Source: a virus (Duplodnaviria; Heunggongvirae; Uroviricota; Caudoviricetes). Taken from it: a DNA stretch of 18,167 nt. The stretch lies in the IMG/VR virus record IMGVR_UViG_2740892039_000008; one strand, written 5' to 3'. A model generated the notes under the pieces. It saw only the letters and a program-made list of their open reading frames with translations, was not told the DNA's origin and made no database searches. Positions 2,559 to 18,167 of this stretch are shown here, piece after piece (position 1 is the stretch's first letter; every line of letters begins with the position of its first letter). The translations under genes and the position numbers were made by a program.

Positions 2559-3467
2559 ATGCCGATTATCGACCTGAACCAGCTACCCGCACCGGATGTG
2601 GTCGAGGAGCTGGACTTTGAAACCATTCTTGCCGAACGCAAGGCGACACTGATTTCCCTTTACCCGGAAGACCAGCAGGAGGCGGTCGCCCGTACCCTGA
2701 CACTGGAATCTGAGCCTCTCGTCAAACTGCTGGAGGAAAATGCTTATCGTGAGCTTATCTGGCGTCAGCGTGTGAATGAGGCCGCACGGGCGGTGATGCT
2801 GGCCTGTGCCGCCGGTAATGACCTTGATGTGATTGGTGCCAATTACAACACCACGCGCCTGATTATCACCCCGGCAGATGATTCGACCATCCCGCCGACA
2901 CCGGCAGTGATGGAATCTGACACCGATTATCGTCTGCGTATTCAGCAGGCGTTTGAAGGTTTAAGCGTCGCCGGGTCGGTGGGTGCCTATCAGTATCATG
3001 GACGCAGTGCTGACGGGCGTGTCGCGGATATCTCTGTCACCAGTCCGTCTCCGGCCTGTGTCACCATCTCTGTGCTGTCACGTGAAAATAACGGTGTCGC
3101 TTCCGAAGACCTGCTGGCGGTGGTGCGTAACGCCCTTAATGGTGAGGACGTCAGGCCGGTGGCCGACCGCGTGACCGTGCAGTCTGCCGCCATCGTTGAA
3201 TACCAGATAAACGCCACGCTTTACCTTTACCCTGGTCCCGAAAGCGAACCCATCCGCGCTGCTGCCGTGAAAAAACTGGAAGCGTACATCACGGCACAGC
3301 ACCGGCTGGGGCGCGACATCCGTCTGTCTGCCATTTATGCCGCTTTGCATGTGGAAGGCGTGCAGCGTGTCGAACTGGCTGCACCACTGGCCGACATCGT
3401 GCTCAACAATACGCAGGCGTCTTTCTGTACCGAATACCGCGTTGTGACCGGAGGCTCGGATGAGTGA
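2559..3467 (+). CDS. J: Baseplate protein J
   Basis: 302 aa, as in P2 gpJ. Follows W by 4 nt. 3' end overlaps I. Confidence 0.88.
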   Translation: MPIIDLNQLPAPDVVEELDFETILAERKATLISLYPEDQQEAVARTLTLESEPLVKLLEENAYRELIWRQRVNEAARAVMLACAAGNDLDVIGANYNTTRLIITPADDSTIPPTPAVMESDTDYRLRIQQAFEGLSVAGSVGAYQYHGRSADGRVADISVTSPSPACVTISVLSRENNGVASEDLLAVVRNALNGEDVRPVADRVTVQSAAIVEYQINATLYLYPGPESEPIRAAAVKKLEAYITAQHRLGRDIRLSAIYAALHVEGVQRVELAAPLADIVLNNTQASFCTEYRVVTGGSDE

Positions 3468-3990
3468 TTCGCGCCTGCTGCCGACCGGCTCATCACCGCT
3501 TGAGGTCGCCGCCGCAAAAGCCTGTGCGGAAATTGAAAAAACGCCGGTCAGTATTCGTGAGCTGTGGAACCCGGACACCTGCCCGGCAAATCTGCTGCCG
3601 TGGCTGGCGTGGGCGTTTTCGGTCGACAGGTGGGATGAAAAGTGGCCGGAAGCGACAAAACGCGCCGTTATCCGCGATGCCTATTTCATCCACTGTCATA
3701 AAGGCACTATCGGCGCAATCCGGCGTGTGGTGGAGCCGCTCGGCTATCTCATTAACGTAAAGGAATGGTGGGAGACAAACGACCCGCCCGGAACCTTTCG
3801 CCTTGATATCGGTGTGCTGGAAAGCGGCATCACGGAGGAGATGTATCTGGAAATGGAACGGCTGATTGCCGATGCCAAACCCGCAAGTCGCCACCTTATC
3901 GGTCTGAACATTATCCAGGACATTCCCGGCTATCTGTATACAGGCGGTGTGGTCTGTGATGGTGATGTTATTACTGTTTATCCCGGATAA
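3460..3990 (+). CDS. I: Baseplate / tail formation protein I
   Basis: 176 aa, as in P2 gpI. Overlaps the J 3' end by 8 nt (translational coupling). Confidence 0.85.
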   Translation: MSDSRLLPTGSSPLEVAAAKACAEIEKTPVSIRELWNPDTCPANLLPWLAWAFSVDRWDEKWPEATKRAVIRDAYFIHCHKGTIGAIRRVVEPLGYLINVKEWWETNDPPGTFRLDIGVLESGITEEMYLEMERLIADAKPASRHLIGLNIIQDIPGYLYTGGVVCDGDVITVYPG

Positions 3991-4000
3991 GTGAGAAACA

Positions 4001-6619
4001 ATGAGCACGAAATTTAAAACCGTTATCACTACTGCCGGAGCCGCGAAGCTGGCAGCCGCTACTGTTCCCGGCGGGAAAAAAGTAAACCTGTCTGCAATGG
4101 CTGTGGGTGACGGTAATGGCCAATTGCCGGTGCCGGATGCCGGTCAGACGAAACTGGTGCATGAAGTCTGGCGTCACGCTCTGAATAAAGTCAGTGTGGA
4201 TAACAAGAATAAAAACTATATCGTGGCTGAACTGGTTGTTCCGCCAGAAGTGGGCGGCTTCTGGATGCGTGAGCTTGGTCTGTATGATGATGCCGGAACA
4301 CTGATTGCGGTATCCAACATGGCAGAAAGCTATAAGCCAGAACTGGCTGAAGGCTCCGGACGTGCGCAGACCTGCCGCATGGTTATTATTCTCAGTAACG
4401 TGGCGTCCGTTGAGCTGAGTATTGATGCCAGCACAGTGATGGCGACGCAGGATTACGTCGATGACAAAATCGCAGAGCATGAGCAGTCCCGCCGCCATCC
4501 TGACGCCACGCTGACAGAGAAAGGTTTTACTCAGTTAAGCAGTGCAACAAACAGCACCAGTGAGTCACTGGCGGCAACGCCAAAAGCGGTCAAGGCTGCG
4601 AATGACAACGCAAATTCACGTCTGGCGAAAAATCAGAACGGTGCAGATATCCAGGATAAATCAGCTTTTCTGGACAATGTTGGCGTTACCAGCCTGACGT
4701 TTATGAAAAACAATGGCGAAATGCCGGTTGATGCTGATCTGAATACGTTTGGTCCTGTTAAGGCTTATTCAGGTATCTGGTCTAAAGCAACATCCACCAA
4801 CGCAACACTGGAGAAAAATTTCCCGGAAGATAATGCTGTCGGTGTGCTTGAGGTTTTTGCTGCCGGCAATTTTGCAGGTACGCAACGCTTTACCACAAGA
4901 GACGGCAATGTATACATGCGTAAACTCGCCAATAAGTGGAATGGCACTGATGGTCCGTGGGGCGTATGGCGTCACACTCAATCAGCGACCCGCCCTTTGA
5001 GTACGACTATAGACCTGAATACGCTTGGAGCCGCCGAGCATCTTGGTTTATGGCGTAACAGTAGCTCGGCTATAGCTTCATATGAACGCAATTATCCAGA
5101 GGAAGGCGGCTTTGCTCAGGGGACGCTTGAGATCCTCGAAGGCGGGAATTATGGAAGAACGCAACGTTATACCACTCGCCGTGGAAATATGTACGTCCGC
5201 TGCCTTGCGGCAAGCTGGGATGCATCAAATCCGCAGTGGGAACCGTGGTTAAGAGTTGGTCATCAGTCAGAGAGTCGTTATTACGACGGGGATTTGAATG
5301 ATGTGACTTCACCAGGTATTTACAGCGTTACAGGTAAAGCGACCAACGGTCCAATACTGGACGGAAACGGCGTGACAGTCCTCGGTATTCTGGAAGTGTT
5401 GAGGCGCTTTGATGGTGTTAACGTATGGCAGCGTTATACAACTGCCGGAACAGGTGCAACCCTTAAAGGTCGCACGTTTGAGCGCGTCTATACCGGCAGC
5501 TCGTGGAGCGAATGGCGGGAAGTCTACACCTCGTATTCACTTCCCCTGAATCTGGGTATCGGCGGTGCAGTGGCAAAGCTCACCAGCCTGGACTGGCAGA
5601 CCCACGACTTTGTGCCGGGCAGTCTGATAACCGTTCGGCTTGATAACATGACCAACATTCCCGACGGTATGGACTGGGGCGTCATTGATGGCAACCTGAT
5701 AAACATCGCAGTTGGTCCGAGTGATGATTCCGGTACGGGGCGCTCAATGCATGTATGGCGCAGCACTGTAAGTAAAGCGAATTACCGCTTTTTTATGGTG
5801 CGTATTTCAGGAAATCCGGGAAGCCGCACGATCACGACAAGACGTGTGCCAATTATCGACGAAGCTCAGACATGGGCGGCGAAACAGACATTCAGCGGTG
5901 GTCTTTCAGGCGAACTGTCCGGCAATGCGGCTACAGCAACAAAGCTGAAAACGGCAAGGACAATTAACGGCGTGAAATTTGACGGCTCGGCAAATATTGA
6001 AGTATTTCCGCCAGGTGTTCCGCTGCCATGGCCATCAGATACACCGCCTGCAGGCTATGCAATCATGCAGGGACAGACGTTTGATAAGGCAGCATATCCG
6101 AAACTGGCTATTGCCTATCCTTCTGGTGTTATTCCAGATATGCGCGGCTGGACAATCAAGGGCAAACCCGCCAGTGGGCGTGCCGTATTGTCACAGGAAC
6201 AGGACGGGATTAAATCGCATACTCACAGCGCCAGTGCGTCAAATACGGACTTAGGAACGAAAACGACCAGTTCATTTGATTACGGGACAAAAACAGTCAG
6301 TACGTTTAACCACGGCACAAAATCAACCAATACTTCTGGCAATCATACACATACCGTCGGTTTTGCTGTGAGCGTGCAATCAGGCGGTGCAGATTATGGT
6401 GTTCCGCGAAGTGATAAAGGTGCTACGACTACAAGTTCATCAGGCAATCATGCACATACAGTCGACATTGGAGCACATAACCATACTGTTGGTATTGGTG
6501 CACATTCACACACTGTTGCTATTGGCTCACACGGGCATTCCATTACCGTAAATGCTACTGGCAATACCGAAAACACCGTCAAAAACATCGCATTTAACTA
6601 TATTGTGAGGCTTGCATAA
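4001..6619 (+). CDS. H: Tail fibre protein H, mosaic: conserved P2-like N-terminus, three internal ~50-aa repeats, His-rich HxH C-terminal tip
   Basis: 872 aa (P2 gpH is about 669 aa by recall). N-terminus [20 protein letters not shown].. is a P2-H-type baseplate-attachment region. C-terminus carries repeated GNHTHTV / [27 protein letters not shown] motifs and a ..NYIVRLA end typical of Tfa-dependent fibres. Confidence 0.9.
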
Positions 6620-7197
6620 TGGCTTTCAGAATGAGTGCAGAAGCACAAACTATCCGCGTTTTCAATTTACTTGATGGAACCAATGAGTTTATTGGCGAAA
6701 GTGATGCATATATTCCGCCGTATACTGGCCTGCCTGCAAACAGTACAGATATTGCACCACCTGATATTCCTGCTGGTTATGCAGCCGTTTTCAATGCAGA
6801 TGAAATGAAATGGGAGTTGATGGAAGATCATCGCGGAAAGACTGTCTACGAAACGAAAACGGGAGCAGCCATTTATATTTCTGAACTTGGCGCATTACCT
6901 CCAGACGTGACAGCCATTTCCCCGGAGGGGGATTATCAGAAATGGAACGGAAATGCGTGGGTGAATGATGAGAATGCAGAGCGTGATGCACTTGTCAGAG
7001 CGGCTGAGTCTCAGAAGAAAGAGCAGATTGCATATGCAGGTGAAATCATTGCCATGCTGCAGGATGCTGTCGATTTAGATATGGCTACCGAGGAAGAAAA
7101 GTTAAGCCTGACACACTGGAAAAAATACCGTGTGCTACTTAATCGCGTTCAGCCGGAAAATGCTCCGGATATAGAATGGCCTGAAATGCCGCAATAA
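6619..7197 (+). CDS. G: Tail fibre assembly protein (chaperone), G position
   Basis: 192 aa. ATG overlaps the H stop (TAATG). C-terminal ..[27 protein letters not shown] resembles the conserved Tfa C-terminal region. Position equals P2 G. Longer than P2 gpG (175 aa by recall), consistent with a swapped H-tip/G module. Confidence 0.8.
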
Positions 7198-7258
7198 ATC
7201 GTATTAGCTCTGGTGTGAGATTACTCATCTATGGCACAGAGTAAAACCTAATCTGACT

Positions 7259-7495: not shown

Positions 7496-8605
7496 GTGCC
7501 TGAAGTGAAGTTGAAGAAGCTATTGATGAAAGTTGTGAAAGTGGTAAAGGAGCAGGTTCTAAGTACCGTTATTTCGGGAATAATAGGCATAGCGGCTACA
7601 GTAGGGCTTTTCCATTTCACTTCACAGCCAATACGATCTGCTGATGTTCGCGAAAAATTAGTTGAAATGGCTCGGGAGTGCATCCAGCAGCAGCTTGCCA
7701 CACATTTGGACTCAGTGGCGTTTGACTCAGTGGCTAGCGAGTCTCTCGATCTAAGCACCTCAAACTCCGTTGTAGTCTACGGAAGAACTGTGAGCACAAA
7801 TGGTGCCCTTAGCCGTTTCCTGATGGTCTTCGAGCCCTCTGGACAGAGTTTGATAGATAAGGTGGTTGGCAGACCTGGATTCTACGATATTGGGTATTGG
7901 GCAATCATCCCAGACGCAGGGGACGACGAGGTTGTGGCTTCTTCAGTAAACATTGAAGACCTCGACAAAGATGGTAACAAGGACATACTAGTCCGCTTAA
8001 AGTCAACTTACGCGGATGGTGTATCCAAAGGGCTTCTTATACTTAAAAAGGATATCCATGATGTATGGCATTTGATGGGGCTTCCATCAATGACAGAGAT
8101 CATGCATTCCATTGCTGCAGGTCAGCCTCCCCAGCCGGAAGGTCTTCACCTTCCACTTCCGGCAATACAATGGTTTAGTAATGACGAAAAACTCAAACCA
8201 AAGTCTGATATCAAACAATATCTTAATTGGGAAATTGACGAAGATAACTTGCAGGTCGCTGATTCCACTGGAAATCATTCTTTTTGGATGTTCAGAAACG
8301 GCACCAAGATAAAAATGTTCGAGAATGGACAAGCCGGCTACAAGCACTTTGGTGTACTGGTCAACATCAATGATGAAGAGGCGATACAGGGAAGGCATCA
8401 TCTCATGGTCAGCTTTTTCAAGATAGAGAATAATAGTTTGGTTCCTGATCCGAATTGGAACTGGGCCTATCCCATGTTCTCTATCGGATTAGAGGATAGC
8501 CAAGAAGTTGAATTAAGTGACATGCAGGAAGCGGGCTTACAAGCTCATGTTTCTGGTAGCTCCGTTTTCGGCCTGACAGAGTTTGGGAAAATGGACTCAG
8601 ATTAA
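7496..8605 (+). CDS. Hypothetical cargo protein at the G/FI (Z/fun) variable locus; 369 aa, N-terminal basic segment plus one predicted transmembrane helix, large C-terminal domain with a DxDxDG-like motif; function unknown
   Basis: GTG start at 7496 (alternative ATG at 7526 preceded by AAGAAG). Hydrophobic helix at about aa 21-41 (VLSTVISGIIGIAATVGLFHF). Motif IEDLDKDGNKD. Visibly lower GC than neighbouring tail genes. Followed by a strong terminator. Confidence 0.7.
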   Translation: MPEVKLKKLLMKVVKVVKEQVLSTVISGIIGIAATVGLFHFTSQPIRSADVREKLVEMARECIQQQLATHLDSVAFDSVASESLDLSTSNSVVVYGRTVSTNGALSRFLMVFEPSGQSLIDKVVGRPGFYDIGYWAIIPDAGDDEVVASSVNIEDLDKDGNKDILVRLKSTYADGVSKGLLILKKDIHDVWHLMGLPSMTEIMHSIAAGQPPQPEGLHLPLPAIQWFSNDEKLKPKSDIKQYLNWEIDEDNLQVADSTGNHSFWMFRNGTKIKMFENGQAGYKHFGVLVNINDEEAIQGRHHLMVSFFKIENNSLVPDPNWNWAYPMFSIGLEDSQEVELSDMQEAGLQAHVSGSSVFGLTEFGKMDSD

Positions 8606-8916
8606 TATTCGCTAACCTTACCAACGAAGAGCAGGTCACAGGTATGGCCTAATTATGTTTTCAGAGGAGTCAGGGCTCAAGAATGCCCCCAGATAAGCCG
8701 TAAATCCTGTAGCGCAAAATCGTCTCAGATGACGCAGAGATATTAAAAACGCCTCAACCTGTTCATCAATTAATTGATAGGTTGAACTGTTAGTTAAACT
8801 TTCACCAGCAGAAAGGTATGAACTTTTTCGACTCGCTCAAAGCTGGCTGTCAGAGCTGATAGCGTTTTGGCTACGTAAATTGTCAGTTGGAAACTGAGCG
8901 AGTACAAATCAGGACG

Positions 8917-8945
8917 GGCGGGCTGATTGCCCGCCTTTTCTTTAT
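8917..8945 (+). terminator. Rho-independent terminator closing the cargo transcription unit
   Basis: GGCGGGC (8917-8923), loop TGATT, GCCCGCC (8929-8935), then TTTTCTTTAT. Confidence 0.6.
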
Positions 8946-15342: not shown

Positions 15343-15423
15343 CGTTTTTATTTTATCTATTTGTTTTATAAGGATAAATTAACTAATATGGCACCATCAA
15401 CAAAACCGGAAGAGGTGCTCGCG

Positions 15424-15642
15424 ATGTTTCATTGTCCTTTATGCCAGCATGCCGCACATGCGCGTACAAGCCGCTATATCACTGACACGACAAAAGAGCG
15501 TTATCATCAGTGCCAGAACGTGAATTGTAGTGCCACGTTCATCACTTATGAGTCGGTACAGCGATACATCGTGAAGCCGGGAGAAGTCCACGCCGTAAGG
15601 CCGCACCCGTTGCCGTCAGGGCAGCAAATTATGTGGATGTAA
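15424..15642 (+). CDS. ogr: Ogr, Cys4 zinc-finger late-gene transcriptional activator
   Basis: 72-aa product MFHCPLCQHAAHARTSRYITDTTKERYHQCQNVNCSATF.. with a CxxC-N22-CxxxxC zinc finger. GGAAGAGG Shine-Dalgarno before ATG 15424. The ORF-track start at 15361 is a TTG extension. Confidence 0.85.
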   Translation: MFHCPLCQHAAHARTSRYITDTTKERYHQCQNVNCSATFITYESVQRYIVKPGEVHAVRPHPLPSGQQIMWM

Positions 15643-15818: not shown

Positions 15819-18167
15819 ATGCTGAGTTTATACGAAAAGATAAAGATAAGGCTGATAATTTTATTTTTATTGGCAGCATTGTCATTTATTGGTCTTTTTT
15901 TCATCATTAACTATCAACTGGTATCGGAACGCGCGGTAAAACGTGCCGATAGCCGCTTTGAACTTATTCAGAAAAACGTTGGCTATTTCTTTAAAGATAT
16001 TGAACGTTCGGCCCTGACATTAAAGGACTCACTGTATTTATTAAAAAATACAGAGGAGATTCAACGTGCCGTGATTCTGAAAATGGAAATGATGCCATTT
16101 TTAGACTCGGTGGGACTGGTACTTGATGATAATAAATATTATCTCTTTTCGCGGAGGGCGAATGATAAAATCGTTGTTTATCATCAGGAACAAGTAAATG
16201 GACCGCTTGTCGACGAGTCAGGGCGGGTTATTTTTGCCGATTTTAACCCATCGAAACGACCGTGGTCGATGGCTTCAGATGACTCTAACAACAGCTGGAA
16301 CCCGGCATACAATTGCTTTGATCGTCCGGGTAAAAAATGTATCTCTTTTACGCTACACATCAACGGCAAAGATCATGATTTGTTAGCGGTAGATAAAATT
16401 CATGTCGATTTAAACTGGCGATATCTGAACGAGTATCTTGATCACATCAGCGCTAATGATGAAGTTCTATTTTTAAAGCAAGGTCATGAGATCATTGCTA
16501 AGAATCAACTCGCTCGTGAAAAATTGATTATTTATAATAGCGAAGGTAATTATAATATTATTGATTCTGTCGATACGGAATATATTGAAAAAACATCAGC
16601 GGTGCCAAACAACGCATTATTCGAAATCTATTTTTATTATCCTGGTGGTAATTTATTGAACGCATCAGATAAACTTTTTTATCTGCCGTTTGCTTTCATT
16701 ATTATCGTATTGCTGGTGGTTTATTTAATGACCACTCGAGTTTTCCGTCGTCAATTTTCTGAAATGACAGATTTGGTCAATACGCTGGCGTTTTTGCCTG
16801 ACTCTACGGATCAAATCGAGGCCCTGAAGATTCGTGAAGGCGATGCGAAAGAGATTATCAGCATCAAAAATTCGATCGCGGAAATGAAAGATGCTGAAAT
16901 TGAACGGGCAAATAAATTGCTCTCGCTGATCTCTTACGATCAGGAAAGCGGTTTTATTAAAAATATGGCGATTATTGAGTCCAACAATAATCAGTATCTG
17001 GCTGTGGGGATCATCAAACTGTGTGGTCTGGAAGCTGTGGAAGCGGTGTTTGGTGTTGATGAACGCAATAAAATCGTCAGGAAATTGTGTCAGCGAATTG
17101 CCGAGAAATATGCGCAATGCTGCGATATCGTGACATTTAATGCCGATCTCTATTTACTCCTGTGCCGGGAAAATGTACAGACGTTTACCCGTAAGATAGC
17201 GACGGTAAACGATTTTGACAGCAGTTTTGGCTACCGCAATCTGCGCATCCATAAGTCTGCTATTTGTGAACCTTTGCAGGGGGAAAACGCCTGGAGTTAC
17301 GCAGAAAAGCTGAAACTGGCGATTTCCAGTATCCGCAACCATATGTTCTCAGAGTTTATTTTCTGTGATGATGCGAAACTCAACGAAATAGAAGAGAATA
17401 TCTGGATTGCGCGTAATATTCGCCATGCAATGGAAATTGGCGAACTATTCCTGGTCTATCAACCGATTGTTGATATTAACACCCGCACCATTTTGGGCGC
17501 GGAGGCGTTGTGCCGTTGGGTGTCTGCGGAGCGGGGGATTATTTCACCGCTGAAGTTCATTACCATTGCTGAAGATATCGGGTTTATCAATGAGCTGGGC
17601 TATCAAATTATTAAAACCGCGATGGGTGAATTCAGACATTTTAGTCAGCGTGCGTCGCTGAAGGATGATTTCTTACTGCATATTAATGTTTCGCCCTGGC
17701 AGTTAAACGAACCACACTTTCATGAGCGTTTTACTACCATCATGAAAGAAAATGGCCTGAAGGCGAACAGCCTTTGTGTTGAGATCACCGAAACCGTGAT
17801 CGAGCGAATTAATGAACATTTCTATCTCAATATTGAACAACTGCGTAAACAAGGGGTACGGGTATCGATTGATGACTTTGGCACCGGTTTGTCAAACCTG
17901 AAACGTTTTTATGAAATTAATCCAGACAGTATAAAGGTGGATTCGCAATTTACCGGCGATATTTTCGGTACTGCGGGAAAAATTGTGCGCATTATTTTCG
18001 ATCTGGCACGCTATAACCGGATCCCGGTGATTGCGGAAGGCGTAGAGAGCGAAGACGTTGCGCGTGAATTAATCAAATTAGGATGTGTTCAGGCTCAGGG
18101 GTATCTGTACCAGAAACCCATGCCATTCTCCGCCTGGGATAAAAGTGGAAAATTAGTAAAAGAGTAG
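15819..18167 (+). CDS. pdeI: Host membrane-bound c-di-GMP phosphodiesterase (two TM helices, periplasmic domain, degenerate GGDEF-like region, C-terminal EAL domain); probably PdeI (YliE)
   Basis: 782 aa, the length I recall for E. coli PdeI/YliE. TM helices at about aa 10-30 and 285-305. EAL signature GAEALCRW and DDFGTG motif in the C-terminal domain. Lower-GC, host-like codon usage. Gene symbol from recall, not a search. Confidence 0.6.
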   Translation: MLSLYEKIKIRLIILFLLAALSFIGLFFIINYQLVSERAVKRADSRFELIQKNVGYFFKDIERSALTLKDSLYLLKNTEEIQRAVILKMEMMPFLDSVGLVLDDNKYYLFSRRANDKIVVYHQEQVNGPLVDESGRVIFADFNPSKRPWSMASDDSNNSWNPAYNCFDRPGKKCISFTLHINGKDHDLLAVDKIHVDLNWRYLNEYLDHISANDEVLFLKQGHEIIAKNQLAREKLIIYNSEGNYNIIDSVDTEYIEKTSAVPNNALFEIYFYYPGGNLLNASDKLFYLPFAFIIIVLLVVYLMTTRVFRRQFSEMTDLVNTLAFLPDSTDQIEALKIREGDAKEIISIKNSIAEMKDAEIERANKLLSLISYDQESGFIKNMAIIESNNNQYLAVGIIKLCGLEAVEAVFGVDERNKIVRKLCQRIAEKYAQCCDIVTFNADLYLLLCRENVQTFTRKIATVNDFDSSFGYRNLRIHKSAICEPLQGENAWSYAEKLKLAISSIRNHMFSEFIFCDDAKLNEIEENIWIARNIRHAMEIGELFLVYQPIVDINTRTILGAEALCRWVSAERGIISPLKFITIAEDIGFINELGYQIIKTAMGEFRHFSQRASLKDDFLLHINVSPWQLNEPHFHERFTTIMKENGLKANSLCVEITETVIERINEHFYLNIEQLRKQGVRVSIDDFGTGLSNLKRFYEINPDSIKVDSQFTGDIFGTAGKIVRIIFDLARYNRIPVIAEGVESEDVARELIKLGCVQAQGYLYQKPMPFSAWDKSGKLVKE

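Follow-up and report, generated by a model that had tools for sequence, protein, structure and literature searches.

Gene H in the 18,167-nucleotide stretch of viral DNA analysed here (the window, to which all nucleotide positions refer) very probably encodes the trimeric tail fibre of a P2-like (Peduovirus) E. coli prophage, built from four exchangeable blocks. The features of H and of the adjacent gene G are collected in Table 1. In the window, the P2-type late operon is complete and comprises S, the orf30 slot, V, W, J, I, H, G, FI, FII, E, T, U, D and ogr, and the order V-W-J-I-H-G was recovered, with Baseplate_J, Tail_P2_I, H and Caudo_TAP following one another as in the annotation of P2 (NC_001895). 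The canonical P2 H occupies the same operon position; it has 669 aa, against 872 aa in the protein considered here, and does not carry the gp37-type HxH tip. The difference of 203 aa agrees with the figure of about 200 aa given in the original prediction. Formation of a trimer by H would be expected from homology, and the structure predictions used below were made for the single chain (monomer) only.

Table 1 Features of the tail fibre gene H and the chaperone gene G, with their positions in the window
Feature	Position (nt)	Strand	Evidence
Gene H, tail fibre protein, 872 aa	4001..6619	+	ORF listing, translation; Pfam Phage_tail_fib, Phage_fiber_2, Collar
N-terminal baseplate-attachment domain, P2 type, aa 1–151	4001..4453	+	PF12571 Phage_tail_fib, E 2.3e-57
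Phage_fiber_2 repeat, aa 170–211, conserved linker, first recombination junction	4508..4633	+	PF03406, E 5.4e-21
Knob domain 1, aa 245–327	4733..4981	+	Self-similarity; unit profile matches pyocin Knob2 in 6CL6/6CL5; fold matches
Knob domain 2, aa 338–420	5012..5260	+	hhalign of units 1 and 2 (U1-U2), 99.9% probability, E 3e-31; profile and fold matches
Knob domain 3, aa 431–511, diverged copy	5291..5533	+	hhalign vs U1 and U2; shared G, P, Q, R, W..W columns in register
Fourth domain, aa 514–640, beta-rich, no family or fold assigned	5540..5920	+	Travels with the knob module
Conserved linker, aa 641–653, second recombination junction	5921..5959	+	Identity changeover
gp37-type receptor-binding tip (collar, needle, tip), aa 653–872	5957..6616	+	phmmer vs PDB 2XGF, E 1.2e-76
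Collar domain, aa 672–719	6014..6157	+	PF07484, E 2.5e-10; aligns with T4 gp37 collar
Ascending needle strand, aa 739–784, HxH 740/742 and 782/784	6215..6352	+	Aligned to T4 gp37 882–931
Tip subdomain, aa 785–810, hypervariable patch, presumed receptor contact	6353..6430	+	Aligned to T4 gp37 932–959, few identities
Descending needle strand, aa 811–855, HxH 817/819, 826/828, 835/837 and 844/846	6431..6565	+	Aligned to T4 gp37 960–1009
Gene G, Tfa-type tail fibre assembly chaperone, 192 aa	6619..7197	+	PF02413, E 2.8e-40; PHROG 105, E 2e-90

The N-terminus of H was found to be of the P2 type, as had been proposed, and this part would anchor the fibre to the baseplate: aa 1–207 are 83% identical to P2 H. 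An end-to-end alignment of the two proteins, which would have spoken against a mosaic structure, was looked for by BLASTP and was absent past aa 207. At the DNA level, H shares 99% identity with other peduoviruses as far as about nt 4540, and the identity to all three compared relatives dips between nt 4540 and 4720. Residues 167–233 of H match the S fibre of phage Mu (5YVQ/8JU3). The length difference and the P2-like N-terminus could also be accounted for by insertion of about 200 aa, i.e., the repeats, into a canonical P2 H, with the remainder being collinear with P2 H. Such an origin is hardly conceivable, because the protein similarity to P2 H stops where it does, the knob profile described below gave no match with P2 H (E 6), and the DNA identity to P2 stays at background between about nt 4630 and the 3' end of G. 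Given this null result for the knob profile, replacement of knobs by other knobs is not demonstrable from sequence; Buth et al. align residues 291–669 of P2 H with the pyocin fibre (PMC6116203). It is also distinctly unlikely, but less so than the insertion, that the H gene comes from a defective prophage or a tailocin-like remnant that no longer serves an infectious phage. The window spans only the late region of the prophage and its right end, and many E. coli genomes of clinical origin have the sequence fixed in identical form; at the same time, all late genes of the window are intact ORFs arranged as in P2, and entries submitted as phage genomes (P24A7b, PhiR44_2 and P24C9) contain near-identical modules. 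The identity of the H protein would be left unchanged by such a remnant status.

Downstream of the P2-type part, three related in-frame stretches (aa 273–325, 364–417 and 458–508) had been noticed as tandem repeats of about 50 aa. The three stretches were recovered, but their size was not: the real unit is about 85 aa long, begins at a DLN motif and recurs every 93 aa or so. The repeat coordinates proposed at first correspond to the conserved C-terminal cores of the knob units only. In pairwise alignment, units 1 and 2 scored z 33 relative to shuffled sequences; unit 3 was weak in this comparison (z 2–3) and was related to the others by profile–profile comparison (hhalign; E 3.6e-6 and 87.5% probability for U1-U3, E 6e-5 for U2-U3). 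The third knob is only moderately supported by sequence, with hhalign probabilities of 65–88%. No direct repeats corresponding to the knob repeats were found at the DNA level, which makes the duplication an old one.

A Pfam search with E up to 10, performed for aa 234–650 and for single repeat units, found nothing. An NCBIfam search of H and G also gave no match, and the name used by NCBI for the homologues, “pyocin knob domain-containing protein”, was therefore tested by comparing the unit profile with the PDB sequences and by a fold search. The unit profile (A2) matched the fibres of R2 and R1 pyocins (6CL6, E 7.3e-7; 6CL5, E 1.2e-6) as well as 6CT8 (E 1.5e-6) over chain residues 139–209; this stretch corresponds roughly to Knob2, assuming that the chain begins near residue 323 (domain limits from PMC6116203). 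The AF2 model containing the knob region (pLDDT 74) had the knob fold, an antiparallel beta-sheet wrapped by loops, and its Foldseek matches included 6CL5 (E 5.6e-7) and the receptor-binding proteins of phi812, phi11 and 80alpha. Foldseek matches to a beta-propeller lectin and a nucleoporin, with TM-scores of 0.10–0.15, were dismissed as repeat-driven noise from a multi-domain model. Compared with the R-type pyocin fibres (6CL5, 6CL6 and 6CU2), which have two knobs, H has three, at about 20% identity in structural alignments; the knobs of the pyocin are followed by a shaft and a lectin-like foot, whereas those of H are followed by a different domain and the gp37-type tip. The knob module is common in peduoviruses and occurs in the gp37 proteins of T4-like phages as well.

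For the fourth domain, no Pfam match was found and hhalign detected no relation to the knob units. Its pLDDT was 64–87 inside the larger model; aa 505–660 modelled alone (AF2) gave a pLDDT of 42 and were left out of the fold search. In peduoviruses and in RB6 gp37, the domain and the knobs are conserved jointly, and aa ~234–640 would form a rigid, partly globular shaft module consisting of three tandem pyocin-type knobs and this beta-rich domain. The second conserved linker, [13 protein letters not shown], closes the module: the 95% protein identity to the P2SIDE7-type H stops just past it, high DNA identity to P24A7b starts at about nt 5890, and RB6 gp37 carries the same linker motif upstream of its knob module (H 630–673 matches RB6 63–106).

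The resemblance of the C-terminal region to the needle of T-even long tail fibres, suggested earlier, was confirmed. Residues 800–1026 of T4 gp37 (2XGF) and aa 653–872 of H both contain a collar, an out-and-back needle and a small tip subdomain between the needle strands, with 67.4% identity over 215 aligned positions and an identical C-terminus, [11 protein letters not shown], although the H tip is borne on a P2 fibre and the gp37 tip on the T4 long tail fibre. Six of the seven iron-binding HxH motifs of T4 gp37 are kept in register, including all four of the descending strand and the equivalents of H929/H931, which were shown to bind iron in T4 (PMC6957217, from which the T4 gp37 domain limits were also taken); at the position of T4 H915/H917, H retains one His only, H771. 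The five iterated HxH motifs listed in the original prediction (aa 782, 817, 826, 835 and 844) were all present, and a sixth, at aa 740 (KSHTHSA, nt 6218), had been missed. Six motifs compare with 0.53 expected from shuffles, and none of 20,000 shuffles reached this number.

By homology with T4 gp37, the chain would run from the collar along the needle out and back, with aa 785–810 at the far end. Each HxH motif, contributed by three chains, would place six histidines round one metal ion (iron in T4), and six such ions would be stacked along the needle axis. One T4 HxH site is lost and the needle of H is shorter in residues than that of T4 gp37 over the aligned stretch, so the geometry would differ in detail. 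Homology likewise suggests the receptor and the host-range effect of the fibre: contact with the receptor, in T4 LPS and/or an outer-membrane porin, would be made by the tip subdomain. In H, aa 785–810 are the most variable part of the tip block, with 47% DNA identity to P24A7b at nt 6340–6429 vs 86–99% in most flanking windows. They are essentially unrelated in sequence to the T4 gp37 tip subdomain, and the receptor is therefore probably different.

Two other interpretations of this region have to be considered. The HxH run might carry no stack of metal sites and represent either a beta-strand repeat (Pfam “Phage_fiber”) or a single zinc site, as in the T4 short fibre gp12. PF03335 Phage_fiber repeats were indeed detected in aa 724–872, the Collar is common to gp12-type fibres (9CUY short tail fibre, E 6e-5), and pyocin fibres have one HxH site only (PMC6116203); nevertheless, the gp12-type proteins match the collar only, whereas the identity to 2XGF extends across the whole tip with the T4 iron motifs in register, which makes this interpretation very improbable. 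Alternatively, the knobs rather than the needle tip could be the main host-range determinant, with lateral binding of polysaccharide and a secondary or triggering role of the tip. This would be in line with Buth et al., who put the most diverse regions of pyocin fibres at Knob2 and the C-terminal domain, with the finding of knob-like domains in saccharide-binding fibres (both PMC6116203), and with the divergence of the knob module from that of P24A7b (50–70% DNA identity) despite a common tip. However, the residues of T4 gp37 that bind LPS and OmpC both lie in the tip subdomain, 932–959 (PMC6957217), and the equivalent patch in H is the single most variable stretch in an otherwise highly identical block, as expected of a specificity determinant, so the leading role of the knobs is considered unlikely. 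The hypervariable patch differs from its counterpart in both T4 gp37 and P24A7b gpH, and could specify a receptor new to gp37-type tips. A fibre with two sites, combining such a patch with knobs that bind glycans laterally, may be put forward as a tentative possibility.

Gene G, the ATG of which shares one base with the TAA stop of H (TAATG), would be translated from this overlapping start as the cognate Tfa chaperone of H, on which the fibre probably depends. It is 98% identical to P24A7b G over the full length, whereas only aa 95–192 (the C-terminal 98 aa) align with P2 G, at 40%, and the N-terminal half is unrelated. These comparisons fit the published modular build of Tfa proteins, in which the N-terminal domain varies and binds the fibre while the C-terminal domain is conserved and serves trimerisation (PMC9608196); the variable half of G would suit this tip type, and the conserved half would be the common trimerisation module. 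The chaperone of the H tip is a Tfa protein, whereas RB6 gp38 gave no BLASTP match with G. The terminator scan found none directly after G, and the first convincing terminator is located at 8915–8936, 3' of a 369-aa ORF.

Comparison with the H genes of other P2-like phages allowed the breakpoints to be located in the two conserved linker motifs. In the original prediction, a receptor-binding module was supposed to have been swapped together with its Tfa-type G. The joint movement holds, since tip and G are together 92–99% identical in DNA to Peduovirus P24A7b, and homology to lambda spans the stf–tfa junction (the 3' end of stf and the 5' end of tfa, on the same block as the 5' part of G, have 79% DNA identity to the prophage). 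The single swap does not: the rest of the fibre has another nearest relative, and in the identity profile the knob module is 93–99% identical in DNA to one peduovirus group. The sequence comparisons point to at least two independent module exchanges, in addition to the hypervariable patch. Homologous recombination at the conserved linkers would have produced gene H, with tip and G inherited together and the knob module derived from a different lineage.

P24A7b gpH/gpG (NC_049390) has the same overall architecture, 874 aa vs 872 aa in H, with N-terminus, tip and G nearly identical to those of the prophage; its knob module is divergent, as noted above, and its tip patch is unrelated to aa 785–810. 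The H of the “P2SIDE7” record (NC_070906) is 95% identical to aa 1–655, and the knob module reaches 91–99% identity in several peduoviruses of E. coli and Y. pestis (PhiR44_2 and P24C9 among them) and 60% in Yersinia phage L-413C, the gpH of which was published as a mosaic with the same 207-aa P2-like N-terminus (PMC7460101). NC_070906, PhiR44_2, P24C9 and L-413C all carry another C-terminal tip and another G (47% or less, in the C-terminal part only).

The H DNA is 100% identical in many E. coli genomes, where it is annotated as “phage tail protein”, and the exact protein is present on about 997 public contigs. The DNA comparison gave 97 E. coli genomes with a coverage of at least 80%, and NZ_CP015085 is one example of a record with the identical locus. 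Many E. coli genomes of human clinical origin, an O25b:H4 strain among them, carry H and G in identical form. Among phage records, the knob module was found in 222 (coverage of at least 80%) and the tip in 403. In Mu and P1, inverted repeats border the fibre segments that can be inverted; no repeats of this kind were found here, and a switchable (invertible) tip was rejected on these grounds.

Taken as a whole, H is an ordinary protein with already known biology, as both modules have solved structural homologues and public databases already list the protein, unaltered, on about 1,000 contigs. It has long been established that P2, Mu, P1, lambda and T-even phages exchange tail-fibre tips as modules together with the chaperones, and R-type tailocins have been retargeted earlier with P2-family fibres. 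The practical value of the present analysis lies in a clean dissection of the fibre into domain boundaries, two linker crossovers and a putative specificity patch of 26 aa. With this domain map as a guide, P2-type phages or R-type tailocins could be engineered to target those E. coli lineages that H recognises.

Comparison of H with the tail fibre genes of related phages revealed a mosaic with two junctions, both of which coincide with conserved motifs (table). Up to aa 207, similarity to H of canonical P2 (NC_001895) amounts to 71–87% for DNA and 83% for protein; it is absent beyond this point. With 872 against 669 aa, the protein is 203 aa longer, in agreement with the approximately 200 aa of the original prediction. 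In NC_070906 (the 'P2SIDE7' record), PhiR44_2, P24C9 and Y. pestis phages, H DNA is 93–99% identical up to nt ~5960 (aa ~655), whereas both the remainder of H and the chaperone gene G are unrelated. The complementary pattern was obtained for Peduovirus P24A7b (NC_049390), with DNA identity of 99% to nt ~4540, only 50–70% over the knob module (three pyocin-type knob domains plus a fourth domain), and 92–99% from nt ~5890 as far as the 3′ end of G, except for a 47% patch at nt 6340–6429, which is exactly the tip subdomain. The proposal of a swapped module accompanied by G therefore holds for the tip and G, both close to P24A7b, but two exchanges are seen instead of one.

Features of the late region and of the H protein
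Feature	Position (nt)	Position in H (aa)	Remark
S	182-634
J	2559-3467
I	3460-3990
H	4001-6619		tail fibre
First junction		170-211	Phage_fiber_2 repeat, also in Mu S fibre
Knob unit 1		245-327	period ~93 aa
Knob unit 2		338-420	period ~93 aa
Knob unit 3		431-511	period ~93 aa
Fourth domain	5540-5920 (+)	514-640	beta-rich; travels with knobs in peduoviruses and T4-like gp37
Second junction		641-653	13-residue linker
Pfam Collar domain		672-719
G	6619-7197		Tfa-type chaperone
ogr	15361-15642		last phage gene in P2 order; host CHASE9-EAL gene next

The same knob module occurs at aa 105–517 of gp37 of the T4-like phage RB6 (KM606996) with 58.6% identity. In RB6 gp37 (aa 63–106) the conserved GNAATATKL linker motif precedes the module, whereas in H (aa 630–673) it comes after it; the motif can thus border the module on one side or the other depending on the fibre, as a portable recombination 'joint' would. 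In gpH of Yersinia phage L-413C, too, a P2-like N-terminus of 207 aa is reported to be followed by foreign segments (PMC7460101); this protein is 73% identical to H over aa 1–673.

The three repeats of about 50 aa predicted within H are in frame (aa 273–325, 364–417 and 458–508) and related, yet they are only the conserved cores of longer units, each opening with a DLN motif. The relationship between units 1 and 2 is clear (local alignment z = 33; hhalign probability 99.9%, E 3e-31). Unit 3, a copy that has diverged, scores weakly in pairwise alignment (z 2–3) but is supported by profile comparison (E 3.6e-6 with unit 1, E 6e-5 with unit 2) and is in register with the others, with common G, P, Q, R and W..W columns. 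Neither DNA-level repeats matching the protein repeats nor an invertible segment was found on searching, and the absence of DNA repeats indicates that the knob duplication is ancient.

No Pfam or NCBIfam model matched aa 234–650, and NCBI labels many homologues of H 'pyocin knob domain-containing protein'. Two independent tests of this label were made. A profile of 24 repeat units, taken from H and its homologues, was searched against PDB sequences and matched the R2/R1 pyocin fibre structures (6CL6, E 7e-7; 6CL5, E 1e-6; 6CT8, E 1.5e-6) at the position of Knob2 (domain limits from PMC6116203). The Foldseek search with the AF2 model returned 6CL5 and the receptor-binding proteins of phi812, phi11 and 80alpha. 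Such proteins were described by Buth et al. (PMC6116203) as structural relatives of the pyocin knobs (phi11 gp45, phage K gp144 and T4 gp34), and the two tests together identify the repeats as three tandem knob domains. Beta-propeller lectin matches in Foldseek (TM 0.10–0.15) were treated as noise, and the knob profile did not match canonical P2 H. The fourth domain is unrelated in sequence to the knob units and matched no Pfam family; its pLDDT was 64–87 inside a larger construct but only 42 when modelled alone, so it was left without a fold assignment.

The predicted T-even-like HxH tip was borne out: aa 653–872 match the crystallised T4 gp37 receptor-binding tip (2XGF) with E 1.2e-76 and 67.4% identity over 215 aligned positions. 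The five HxH motifs originally listed were all confirmed, and one more (KSHTHSA, aa 740), missed at first, brings the total to six; shuffling predicts 0.53, and a count of six was not attained in any of 20,000 shuffles. In the T4 gp37 needle, HxH motifs and iron ions number seven each (PMC6957217), and the pyocin fibre has a six-histidine HxH site (PMC6116203); by analogy, one ion per HxH motif of three chains would be bound in H. Six of the seven T4 motifs are kept in register: H883/885, 929/931, 966/968, 980/982, 989/991 and 998/1000 correspond to H740/742, 782/784, 817/819, 826/828, 835/837 and 844/846, while of the H915/H917 site only one histidine, H771, is left. Mutagenesis has shown that the tip subdomain of T4 gp37 (residues 932–959) binds LPS and OmpC (PMC6957217); the equivalent aa 785–810 of H have almost no residues in common with it. 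The original interpretation is thus correct in all essentials, with four refinements: the size and identity of the repeat unit, the sixth HxH motif, two exchanges instead of one, and the precise specificity patch.

G carries a Caudo_TAP domain, and its start codon shares a base with the stop codon of H (TAATG). G of P24A7b, which accompanies the same tip, is 98% identical, whereas P2 G is similar only over the C-terminal 98 aa (40% identity). This pattern fits the Tfa model outlined in PMC9608196 (citing North et al. 2019): the fibre tip is bound by an N-terminal domain that varies, and trimerisation is driven by a conserved helical domain at the C-terminus. At the DNA level, the final 170 nt of H and the opening 175 nt of G share 79% identity with the lambda stf 3′ end and tfa 5′ end.

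The window corresponds to the late (tail) region of a P2-like E. coli prophage, with gene order from S to ogr as in P2 (ORF listing against P2 annotation): V and W lie between an orf30-like gene and J, and FI, FII, E, T, U and D between G and ogr. The orf30-like ORF (706–1491, −; 261 aa), between S and V, occupies the position of the non-essential P2 orf30 and has no Pfam or PADLOC match. A 369-aa ORF (7496–8605, +) separates G from the sheath gene FI, in the slot of the non-essential lysogenic-conversion gene fun(Z) of P2; it matched nothing in Pfam, NCBIfam or PADLOC, matches PHROG 15038 'unknown function' (E 3e-259), and is possibly a cargo gene, either a moron or a defence gene. A convincing terminator-like site is first encountered beyond it, at 8915–8936. 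An ORF of at least 782 aa with CHASE9 sensor and EAL domains (15819–18167, +) runs off the window end and looks like a host c-di-GMP phosphodiesterase, which places the prophage right end, and presumably the attachment site, between ogr and 15819.

Many complete E. coli genomes, including that of one O25b:H4 strain, contain the 4001–7200 region with 100% identity; there it is annotated as 'phage tail protein' and 'tail fiber assembly protein', and the exact H protein is recorded on about 997 contigs. At ≥80% coverage, the knob module occurs in 222 phage records (E. coli and Yersinia peduoviruses and many Tequatrovirus gp37) and 97 complete E. coli genomes carry the module combination; the tip itself occurs in 403 phage records. 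In the phage collection, P24A7b provides a full-length homologue of the same architecture (76% identity). There is accordingly no novelty of substance, both modules having solved structural relatives.

Judged by homology, the fibre most likely works as follows. Three H chains would be held to the baseplate through the P2-type N-terminus, with the three knobs and the fourth domain as the shaft; the collar-needle-tip would fold from the distal end, aided by G, and be stabilised by six axial metal ions on the HxH histidines, and the 26-residue tip subdomain would touch the cell-surface receptor. The main live rival, or complement, to this is that the knob module may provide a second, lateral carbohydrate contact, as already proposed for pyocin fibres (PMC6116203).
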